Assembly (NCBI GenBank): GCA_038087875.1
Contig: CM075993.1
Coordinates: forward strand, 4,590,001-4,654,000
Length of the DNA: 64,000 bases
Direction: 5' to 3'
From: Malacoraja senta
Lineage: Eukaryota
Below are positions 1,941-9,741 of the stretch, piece by piece. The position numbers and the translations under genes are program-made. The notes under the pieces were generated by a model. The model was not told the DNA's origin, did not search any database, and saw nothing but the letters and a program-made list of their open reading frames with translations. Numbering within the stretch: position 1 is the first letter of the stretch; every line of letters begins with the position of its first letter.

Positions 1941-2630
1941 TCCTCGGTCTACTGTCAAGAGATACCTTGAATTATCGTTCTGGATTTGCCTTGACCATAT
2001 CATTGTATCACAAACCATTTGTTAAAATTGTATTTTAATCAATAAATAGTAAAAATTGCAGGTGAATTTTAGATAATATCGCAGCACAGTTCTTAGACAA
2101 GTAGGGTGCAGTATGTGGAGATGTTATGAAGGGAAAGGGTGCTTAGAAAAATCATTGTATGATTGTTGGAATCAATATACATTGATTGAAGGTTGTCATA
2201 ATCAATTCCAGAGTTCCTCCCCGTAGGTCAAGTTAAACCCAGAGTGTGGAAGCAAAGATAGGAGAGTGGGTTAAATGGTACCAAGGAACATGTAGAAACA
2301 AAGAACCGCAGATGCTGGTTAATATACAAAAGGACACTGTAAAGATTTGTCATAACGCACTGTGTCTTTACTACTGTTTATTCATAATACACATTATACA
2401 CATACTTTGCTGCCCTAGCTGTCCGTGGTCTGTCACTGGAACCAGAGAGAGAGAACTGGGTGGGAAGGTTGCAATTATATCAGTGATGTGGGGAGTGGTT
2501 AGTAGTGGTGAGGTCACTATGTTAAAGGTACATGCACATATCATCTACATCCTTCCCCTTGGAAATAATAAGCAATACCGAAGTGACAGGGCGACCACGT
2601 CTCATACGCTACGAGCAGGTGAGCAAACAG

Positions 2631-3536
2631 TTAAACAAATTCACCATAACGGATAGGCGGCCTGACCACCCGCCCGGACCGGGTACGCAGTTCGCCATCC
2701 CCCCCTTCTGCAGGCGGAGCATGAGTTGGAGCCGGCGCGGGGGAGAGAACCGGGGAACCAGGAGGAGAATGAGAAAACGGAGAAGGAGCAGTAGCGGGAA
2801 GACGGGCAGGCGAGGGAGGACTGGCCGGAGGGGCAGGCAGCGTTGTCGACAGTGGGGGGGAAAAGGGATCCGCAGGCGGCGGTGGTGGCTCGTTAACAAG
2901 CCGCAGATGTTGCCGGGACCGGCGGTAAATGGTACCGTCATGGTCGACAAGGTAGGACCGCGGCGAACCAGCAGTACCGACGACGATGGCAAGCCTGGGG
3001 TGACCGGAGGGGGACTGCATTCGGACGACTTGGCCTGAGAGCAGAGGCGGGAGAGGACGACAAGACTTGTCGTGGGAGCGCCGTTGGATTTCTTGTTTGA
3101 AGGCAATGTGCTCCTGGACGGCAGCGGGACGGAGGACAGAGGGAACGAGGGACCGCTGGGTCACCGGGATCGGAGGTCTCGTAGTGCGAGACATCAGCCG
3201 TTGAGCTGGGGAGCCCAATGCAGTGTCGCGGCAAATGTTTCGAAGGTTGAGGAGGGCCAAGTAAAAATCAGAATGGGACAGTCTACAATGTTCCAGCAAG
3301 TCCTTAGCACTGCGGACAGCGCGCTCTGCCAACCCGTTGCTTTGTGGGTACTCTGGGCTGCTGGTGTAGTGTCGGAAGTTCCAACTGGCAGCGAAACTCT
3401 GAAATTCTGCGCTCGAGAACTGGCCGCCGTTGTCCGATTGAAGACTTGCCGGGGTGCCATGGGTTCCGAACTTCTGGTCTCCAAGTGCAGGCGTGGGTTC
3501 GTATCCCACTTCTGACACCATGTAAAGATGTGTCAT
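2631..3536 (-). pseudogene. Truncated Gypsy integrase ORF (second half of DDE core plus C-terminal region)
   Basis: LQSDNGGQF…F…W…H.TSSPEYPQSNGLAERAVRSAK is the rve core (second D and E present; HHCC and first D absent), followed by SPAQRLMSR, PRSYLV…G..YRRSRQHLR and TRSGRVVRPP.R motifs. Confidence 0.88.
3472..3520 (-). other. Extended primer-binding site; the plus strand reads as the 3' half of tRNA-Leu(CAA) including CCA
   Basis: ttctggtctccaagtgcaggcgtgggttcgtatcccacttctgacacca directly abuts the LTR and matches the recalled vertebrate tRNA-Leu-CAA from position 38 to CCA. Confidence 0.85.
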
Positions 3537-5016
3537 AACGCACTGTGTCTTTACTACTGTTTATTCATAATACACATTATACACATACTTTGCTGCCCTA
3601 CCTGTCCGTGGTCTGTCACTGGAACCAGAGAGAGAGAACTGGGTGGGAAGGTTGTAATTATACCAGTGATGTGGGGAGTGGTTAGTAGTGGTGAGGTCAC
3701 TATGTTAAAGGTACATGCACATATCATCTACAGACACAAAGTGCTGGAGTAACTCAGCAGGTCAGACAGCATCTATGGAGAATATGGATAGGTGATGTTT
3801 CAGGTCGATACCTTCAGACTCAGAAATGTTGCCTATCCATGTTCTCCAGAGATGCTGCCTGACCTGCTGAGTTACTTCAGCACTTTGTGCCCATTTGTGT
3901 ACTGAGGAATATGTTGGATTTAAGGAGGGCTTTGAAAATGTGAAGAGATTCAACAAAGACTTCCAGACTATGAAGACAACAATGGCTGAGTAGAACACAG
4001 ATAAAAAGAGCCAGAGTTGGGTTTGATCAGGCGGGCCATGAAGATGAAGAGATAACAGGGATAGGGGATTTTACATGGAGTGCATTTGATACGCTTTTGT
4101 GCAGAAAAGGAATGTGGGTTGAGATAAATATTGGGGTCAATGTGCCCGTGAGACCAATAACCTGGTAATGAGGGAAAATTTGCACAGGTTAGTTAATGCC
4201 TCTCTTTGGTGATTGGATTGAGTATGATCCTCAAATAAGATATGGTTCCACAAAACTGGAAAGAAATGTCTTATAATTGTTCAGCTCAGAACTCAATTAC
4301 CAAATACCACAAAATTCTGCTTCTATTCATCCGTCGGCTTGTTTTGATGGCAAACTATGGAGCAAGAAAGCGGGCAAAATCCAGGGACTCATCAGTGCAT
4401 AATTATCAGAAAATGTCAGGCTGTGTTCTAAGTGTTCTGCCGTGAAGAATTACATGCTGCAAGTCTTTCCTTACCCTGTAACTGGGGTGAGAATTACCAT
4501 CACAGCTGATAATTAACAAATTCTGAAGAAAGCAAGATGAAAAGCAAGAAAAACAAAATAGGGGAAGGGGATTCAGGTTGTTATCTGAAAGATCAAGGAA
4601 AACTTACTACTGAAGGAATTGTAATAGATTACCTATACATGGCAACCTTGAACCATAATTAACCTGGCAAAACTGCCAGTGAAGCAAGCAACTTCTTTTG
4701 AAAGAATCCAAGATGGGCTGCTTTCCTGTACTTTTGTTACTTTCATCTATGAAGGTGCCAAATCATGCAAGATATAGTTAGAAAGAATTACATAGACGTT
4801 ACACGCAGAAACAGCCCCGTTCAACTGGCCTGTTCTCCACCTGGCCCTTATGATTTCAAAGCTATCGCAAAAAATTAATGCAAAGAAGCACAGTCTAATT
4901 TGGTTTCACCCTATTCAAGACATCCTCTTTGCTCTGTCAACCCTTCCTCCACCTCTTCTGCTAATGAAAACTACTGTTTTTCTCTTTTTGCCAGTCGGTT
5001 GTCCACCAGCTATCAC

Positions 5017-7202: not shown

Positions 7203-7432
7203 GTAGAAACCAAAAACTGCAGATGCTGGTTAATACATGAAAATACACAAGCTGCTGCAGTAACTCAGCGGGTCAGGCAGCATCTCTGGCGAACATGGAT
7301 AGGTGACGTTTTGGGTTGAGATGCTTCAGACCCTTCAGTCTGGAGAAAGGTCCCGACTCGAAATGTCATCTATCCATATTCTCCATGATGCTGCCTGACC
7401 CACTGAGTTACTCCAGCACCTCATGTCTTTTT
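7203..7432. mobile_element. Penelope-derived palindromic mini-element
   Basis: Two inverted pLTR arms meet at a degenerate hammerhead motif; imperfect direct flanks attgcatctatt/atagcatccatt. Confidence 0.75.
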
Positions 7433-8261
7433 ATAGCATCCATTTGCGCTGAATGCAGTGTGTGAAATCTCCCTTTTTAATATCTTCTACCATTTGCACA
7501 AGCACAAAATTGTGCCTTTTGTTAAAAAATGGTTACAGCGCCAAATGGATCTTTTCATCTCATACATTGTTCCAAGCCGAGTATATGCAGGAGGCATCGT
7601 CACTATTTCCTGTTTGAACGACAGATGAACGGGAATCAGATTTAAACTGACTAGGAGGAAATCTAAACATCTTCGGTTTTGAACGATGTGTTATCTAATA
7701 TCTGCCATATAACTCAATTTTTAACAAAGCATTCCATGCACTTAAATAAGTGGACCATCAGTTTTGGGTCATCGTCACACAGCTCAGAAACAGGCCATTT
7801 GGCCCACCACATCTATGCTGACTATTAAGTGCTTTGCTTGTTCGCTGTTAGTTTTAAATCACAATGGTGCAAAATAAAACTGAAATAATCTAAACGATAA
7901 CTTTACGCAGCTGGTCATGACATGAATTTTATATAACAACCTTATTGAGTTGTGTTAGTTGGAATGTGTTAGATTGTCAGTTCAATGGTAATCTGTCACG
8001 TGTACCTAACTCCATTGAATTTTTTCAGTGACAATGACAGTTCAGTGACAATCCTGCATTGTTTAGAATTGTTTAAATCGTCAGAATGCTAAATCAATAT
8101 CAGTGATAATATGGTAATTGGCTTGCATAACATGTCACTGGAACTCTTGGTAACCAAATTCCATCATTCTATCAGGTTGCGATGACATTCACACACAACG
8201 CATGGATTTAAAATACATGTGAAGGAGAGTGCTTTATAATAAAGCTGTTTGAGATGTTTGG

Positions 8262-9535: not shown

Positions 9536-9741
9536 GGTACACAAAAAAATGCTGGAGAAACTCAGCGGGTGCAGCAGCATCTATGGAGCGAAATAGATAG
9601 GCAACGTTTCGGGCCGAGGGTTTCGGCCCGAAACGCTGCCTATCTCCTTTGCTCCATAGATGCTGCTGCACCTGCTGAGTTTCTCCAGCATTTTTTTGTG
9701 TACCTTCGATTTTCCAGCATCTGCAGTTCCTTCTTTAACAC
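9536..9741. mobile_element. Penelope-derived palindromic mini-element with 15-bp TSD
   Basis: TSD aaatgttataccctt at 9521-9535 and 9742-9756; inverted arms joined at the hammerhead stem II; inserted in a Rex1-type tail. Confidence 0.88.

Follow-up and report, generated by a model that had tools for sequence, protein, structure and literature searches.

The locus considered here raises the question of how the 3′ 49 nt of a tRNA came to lie in a retrotransposon, at a place where a canonical primer-binding site (PBS) would have 18 nt. The window (the whole stretch of 64,000 nt that was analysed, positions 4,590,001 to 4,654,000 of contig CM075993.1 of Malacoraja senta) contains this sequence at 3472–3520. 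A preliminary description, made from the letters alone, took it for a read-through copy of tRNA-Leu(CAA) scarred at m1A58, stopped at m1G37 and connected with the loss of gag-pol, and named an inherited long PBS as the alternative. In HIV-1, plus-strand synthesis is described as normally halting before m1A58 (PMC13191261); minor products reach positions 55, 54, 37 or the tRNA's 5′ end, the long ones being called inactive (PMC13191261; PMC8599865). Our analysis indicates that, in the present family, plus-strand strong-stop DNA was very probably over-extended through a likely m1A58 and m3C, stalled at a likely m1G37, rescued by microhomology and integrated.

The 49-nt stretch is carried by a young, 5′-deleted, 1.4-kb Ty3/gypsy copy on the minus strand, from a family that may belong to the Mag clade. 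Its two 212-bp LTRs with TGTA…TACA ends (3′ LTR at 2338–2549, 5′ LTR at 3521–3732, both minus strand) are identical at 208 of 212 positions and are flanked by a perfect 5-bp target site duplication (TSD; left copy 2333–2337, right copy 3733–3737). The insertion splits a high-copy interspersed repeat (families D2 and D10), present at 2291–2337 and resuming at 3733. An 11-nt purine run in the element sense, the polypurine tract (2550–2560, minus strand), abuts the 3′ LTR, and a canonical 18-nt PBS for tRNA-Leu (3503–3520, minus strand) has its CCA end directly on the 5′ LTR. With these LTRs, TSD, PBS and polypurine tract, the element is a defective Ty3/gypsy LTR retrotransposon. The pol remnant, an ORF at 2631–3470 (minus strand), comprises the C-terminal part of integrase and begins within the catalytic core; gag, protease, reverse transcriptase (RT) and RNase H are missing. 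It matches Pfam rve at positions 64–102 (E 2e-6, under the curated cut-off) as well as integrases in the PDB, and aligns from position 3281 of the 4293-nt internal region of a relative, L082, in which protease, RT, RNase H and integrase follow one another in Ty3/gypsy order, the protease match being under its cut-off. The window copy is dead; it serves no function itself and is of value as a record. A non-autonomous amplified (TRIM-like) family was considered and rejected, for the junction of the window copy is found in no other of 100 copies and junctions are nearly all unique.

Two pattern searches of the 1.94-Gb genome yielded the host tRNA-Leu genes with which the stretch could be compared: four intact Leu-CAA genes (L044, L047, L048 and L203), two interrupted ones (L045 and L202) and six intronless Leu-CAG genes, one of them degenerate. 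The CAA genes carry an intron of 30–31 nt exactly between positions 37 and 38 and do not encode CCA; all four intact ones have A58 and, at one site in the variable loop, a C that precedes UGGAG (UGAGG in L203). The interrupted genes L045 and L202 break off at about position 33 and at position 41, respectively, and their 3′ half was not found within 1.5 kb.

The sequence at 3472–3520, directly adjoining the LTR, is the 3′ 49 nt of the spliced host tRNA-Leu(CAA) plus CCA. Measured against L044 and L047, with the intron removed and CCA added by script, 46 of the 49 positions agree, either gene's base being accepted at two sites where the two genes differ. Alignment to the same genes delimits the over-extension as a 31-nt copy of positions 38–58 (3472–3502, plus strand), spanning the 3′ anticodon stem, the variable arm and the T arm. 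The mismatches, all read on the plus strand, are T for A58 at 3502 (all intact genes have A), G for the variable-loop C at 3485 (C in 4/4 intact CAA genes) and C for a variable-arm G at 3488 by comparison with the host genes. The first two are putative scars of m1A and m3C; the change at 3488 is unexplained and is probably a background mutation. The preliminary description, which had claimed a match to tRNA-Leu(CAA) well beyond 18 nt and a substitution exactly at 58, is thus borne out by the host genes. Among these there was neither a failure to match beyond 18 nt, nor a gene with T at 58, nor a displacement of the mismatches from 58 and 37.

Its third claim, a break at position 37, stands as far as the base is concerned, 3471 being C where the tRNA has G37, and less well as to the exact end. 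At the junction (3469–3471, plus strand), 3469–3470 fit both tRNA positions 35–36 and integrase, so that the end is ambiguous by 3 nt and the exit may lie at 38 or at 35. Base 3471 fits neither side, as it differs also from the integrase of 14/14 relatives, 13 of which carry the base that the tRNA would dictate too. Three origins are conceivable: a halt of the RT at 38 with one base added, a miscoded G37 with departure from the tRNA at 35, or a point mutation at a later time. Exact microhomology at the window's own junction amounts to only 1 nt. ARAGORN called no tRNA in the window and Rfam found no relevant family in 2500–5000, the tRNA-like piece being too short for either. When contigs of four sequencing runs were compared with 3300–3900, no listed piece bridged the junction, the neighbouring repeat having swamped the matches. 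Two runs from other organisms that are without this LTR (X4 and X6) displayed high summed contig depth over 3468–3530, a weak hint of the pattern in related species in which true tRNA genes are not separated out.

The preliminary description treated as a single case a feature that is real and that proves to be the majority state of its family. Relatives were sought with a pattern blind to extension, which joined the LTR end to bases 1–16 of the PBS; it gave 224 matches and left out those ending in T. The first 100 listed (contigs C1–C7) were analysed; L113 and L125 (duplicates of L112 and L124) and a second PBS in L093 were dropped before counting (n = 98), and 30 loci from a query-biased search were left out of the rates. 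The match runs 27–50 nt into the tRNA in 68/98 sampled relatives and 17–23 nt in the other 30. A58 is altered in 13 of the 68 extended copies (T in eight, G in four, C in one; Fisher p 4e-9), which agrees with the read-through with misincorporation proposed beforehand, the nature of the modification being deduced from position and literature. A58 is unchanged in the other 55, a state that fits correct bypass and under-methylation equally. The strongest scar, which the preliminary description had overlooked, is that at 3485: the variable-loop C is altered in 27/33 copies (T in 19, A in six, G in two; Fisher p 1e-36). Other tRNA positions are altered in 20 of 1152 cases, a background of 1.7% per site, to which the median LTR divergence of 1.5% (62 copies) is close. 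Neither scarred site is a CpG, and CpG decay was rejected as a source of the scars, its signal falling at C48/G49 and not at 58 or at the variable-loop C.

The ends of the copies are as position-specific as the errors. Of the 55 copies at risk, 15 terminate no more than 2 nt 3′ of the variable-loop C, as compared with 1–5% per position in the T stem; since the ending rate again reaches 10–23% in the 5′ variable stem, the stop at this C is a step and not a wall. None of the 98 sampled copies runs more than one base past position 38. A separate search for copies reaching T38 on any LTR returned 48 rows, namely three genes and 45 copies (about 40 distinct), of which 28 were scored by script and 17 by eye. 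With the genes left out, 40 of the 45 end at 38, in line with the predicted stop at G37, and five run on along the spliced anticodon arm, with G37 miscoded in three. All told, the CAA read-throughs have G37 miscoded or skipped in 4/7 (L157, L169, L182 and L035, as against L175, L178 and L049); L157 bears the same G-to-C change as the window copy, and L035 skips the base. One read-through, L049:1441–1527, is a full-length spliced tRNA-Leu(CAA) with CCA on the LTR and a junction to integrase-core-like sequence; as ARAGORN reports a tRNA gene here, copies of this sort can inflate tRNA annotations. Farther along, the G37 read-throughs L157, L169, L035 and L175 end or are miscoded at positions 26–27, where we presume m2,2G26 to lie, while L182 and L049 pass these positions unchanged. 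In addition, L157 has C34 read as T, at a position which the zebrafish data list as modified (PMC11417395).

These marks are shared by at least seven LTR groups. Extensions of non-Leu primers were sought with two patterns, which gave 5 matches versus 2 in the control and 8 versus 4, that is, near control level; the recognisable matches were Leu-type, and the patterns, by requiring the LTR end directly on the PBS, made for a weak test.

Could the end at position 38 simply be the end of a template, the RT having run off the 3′ exon of a pre-tRNA or a cleaved 3′ tRNA fragment? This possibility, which the preliminary description had missed, is suggested by the position of the intron in all CAA genes and by the scatter of further ends along the variable arm and stem. 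L155, moreover, continues past 38 with 10 nt of which six match the end of the CAA intron, either from a pre-tRNA template or by chance. The Leu-CAG copies, whose genes are intronless, speak against it. Among 11 rows (eight distinct copies), three stop at 38 and five pass, reading G37 as T or A and in some cases continuing for just 3–4 nt; none retains G37 or the variable-loop C, and in the one Leu-TAG-type copy G37 is likewise miscoded. Since copies from intronless tRNAs behave alike, the stop at 38 is not a splice-site effect. The spliced state of the CAA read-throughs, with their frequent errors at G37, points the same way, and a run-off would leave the substitutions unexplained. We therefore regard a template end as very unlikely. 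About as improbable, and if anything slightly more so, is that the substitutions are unassembled tRNA gene variants or post-insertion mutations and not scars left by the RT. The copies imply two isodecoders absent from the genes found, one CAA (A at V5 with G57) and one CAG, so that the gene set is demonstrably incomplete, and some of the T class, T being the majority base at the variable-loop site (19/33), might come from an undetected gene with T in that place. Against this reading speak the three different bases at each site, on both CAA backbones and on CAG, the low background, the small LTR divergence, the non-CpG context of the sites and the stops that pile up just 3′ of the variable-loop C.

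Least probable of all, to the point of being hardly tenable, is an inherited and functional long tRNA-annealing site in the family, comparable to the Ty1 boxes, the lentiviral primer over-extension sequence or the 22-nt PBS of ETn/MusD. It derives some appeal from the native 5′ UTR behind the PBS (L080, L082 and L086), which resembles the tRNA T-arm complement in degenerate form, and from L083 and L085, which over-extend and then rejoin the native UTR there. Yet those three native-UTR copies have a PBS of 18 nt, and the 22 LTRs closest to that of the window (93–98% identical) are accompanied by extensions of 18–49 nt, mixed scars and different junctions. The inherited 49-nt form, which the preliminary description had offered as its alternative, is thereby refuted. 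A short degenerate site is conceivable; the T-arm look-alike may stem from an old read-through that became fixed, or may act in rescue much as the lentiviral primer over-extension sequence does. Over-extension occurred independently in each insertion, although nearest neighbours share the variable-loop base slightly more often than in shuffles (16/34 versus 12.3, P 0.15).

The junctions of the extended copies bear out, at the level of the population, the coupling of read-through to gag-pol deletion that had been suggested: the extended copies join pol, at sites that are distinct in nearly each of the 68. A normal 18-nt PBS–UTR junction is clearly kept in only 3/98 (L080, L082 and L086), a count to be read with the proviso that some diverged copies are unmappable (18/100 had no informative match), and the native UTR junction is absent from 27 of the 30 short-PBS copies too. 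Junction microhomology is enriched, with a mean of 3.0 nt and 3 nt or more in 20/44, part of which is chance extension of the tRNA match. The element ends and the perfect 5-bp TSD in 45/53 copies with intact ends are those of normal integration. An inverted internal segment is present in 15/66 copies with both LTRs, orientation labels set relative to other rearranged copies being ignored, and in 10/12 copies that begin with an inversion, the start of the sense part lies 3′ of that of the inversion. Some junctions recur at inverted hot spots with microhomologies of 7–9 nt (L138, L139, L160, L179 and L180, a group that spans different LTR variants; L057, L102, L122 and L128). In L112, L113 and L135 the tRNA extension is followed, head-to-head, by an inverted internal region, near full length or in pieces; in L105, L130, L156 and G000:C334:18222–18287 the end of the over-extension folds back on, or jumps to, the tRNA copy that it carries, part of which is duplicated.

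We read the 49 nt as the primer tRNA-Leu(CAA), spliced and bearing CCA, copied into DNA, in all likelihood by plus-strand strong-stop synthesis. The strong-stop DNA would find no PBS to pair with, and the RT, idling on the tRNA, would read on, pass m1A58 and the variable-loop m3C with miscoding and stall at m1G37. The over-extended end would join a partial minus strand by microhomology, in the window copy within the integrase region, or might first join leftover genomic RNA, which would give inversions; integrase would then insert the 5′-deleted product. The template was mature tRNA, because CCA is absent from the genes and the read-throughs are spliced. The CCA is contiguous with the LTR, and errors and stops lie at known RT-blocking positions, as expected of over-extended strong-stop cDNA. 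The 27 short-PBS copies that are also broken at the PBS suggest that failed transfer came first and read-through second. These copies, together with the arrangement of sense and inverted parts, favour an unfinished minus strand offering no PBS as the cause of the failure, an explanation to which we give an even chance. Selection against intact copies may account in part for their rarity.

The chemical identity of the three sites, presumably m1A58, m3C and m1G37, is deduced from position and literature. In zebrafish, m3C at e2/47d in Leu-CAG, m1G37 and m1A58 are reported as sites of RT error (PMC11417395), and RT errors at m1A58, m1G37 and m3C e2/47d (Leu-CAG and Ser) are reported to vanish on demethylation (PMC11417395; PMC9072684; PMC8062790; PMC4787781). 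In the available portions of two of these papers, m3C47d is placed in Leu-CAG and Ser, not in Leu-CAA (PMC11417395; PMC9072684); its presence in Leu-CAA would be an extrapolation from these tRNAs.

Partial precedents exist. For ETn/MusD, a PBS of 22 nt is described in which the m1A position bears a fixed mismatch (bioRxiv 10.1101/2025.05.12.650695). As here, a PBS extension is held in the genome with a base attributed to misincorporation at m1A58; it measures 4 nt and, as described, represents one inherited state common to full-length elements, whereas the present extensions measure 9–69 nt, are independent per insertion, involve three scored sites and are tied to 5′ deletion. The over-extended products of HIV-1 RT (P1, P3–P5) likewise pass m1A58 and stop at a later modified base, including 37, or copy the whole tRNA. 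They are described as minor and mostly in vitro, P1 and P5 as unable to transfer or integrate; here, in contrast, most of the germ-line insertions sampled are over-extended and owe their rescue to microhomology or inversion, with stops at the putative m3C and m1G37. With spleen necrosis virus vectors, Pulsinelli and Temin are said to have found in 1991 that errors of plus-strand strong-stop termination or transfer lead to large PBS-anchored deletions, reportedly with cellular sequence in some, as rare events selected in culture; the deletions of the window family, which start at the PBS, would resemble these. LINE-1 elements undergo 5′ truncation and twin priming, by which the 3′ part is kept and the 5′ part lost, often with an inverted 5′ segment. 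[quoted passage not shown] Our search of the open literature, with most subscription and old papers outside its scope, found neither a genome-wide multi-site record of this kind nor over-extension as a majority outcome. The error pathway itself is known from retroviral biochemistry; what is noteworthy is its being the majority state of the sampled family, and the position-specific, testable predictions of modification that it affords.

These insertions afford an in vivo, germ-line view of RT behaviour at modified tRNA bases that matches retroviral biochemistry in the tube, and they contradict what is usually stated, namely that long, over-extended strong-stop DNA is incapable of integration. 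It is likely that tRNA modifications of the germ line can be read from the genome as from a fossil record. Where tRNA-seq is lacking for a species, modifications and priming isodecoders could be inferred from its DNA by itself, and LTR divergence would serve as a clock. The question is raised why so few sampled young copies keep a clear normal PBS–UTR junction. One may speculate, at somewhat less than even probability, that Leu-primed Ty3/gypsy transposition in this lineage usually ends in failed second-strand transfer, possibly through a host defence that truncates the minus strand, and that the insertions amount to a tRNA-seq library. If so, hundreds of datable insertions would constitute an in vivo single-molecule tRNA-seq library of the germ line, covering m1A58, the variable-loop m3C on Leu-CAA, m1G37 and perhaps m2,2G26, readable from assemblies alone and comparable between ages and species.

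Elsewhere in the window, a 142-bp perfect tandem duplication lies at 401–684. High-copy repeat sequence forms close inverted pairs at 3735–3889, 9536–9704 and 7237–7434, the arms of the pairs at 3735–3889 and 9536–9704 being 88–94% complementary.
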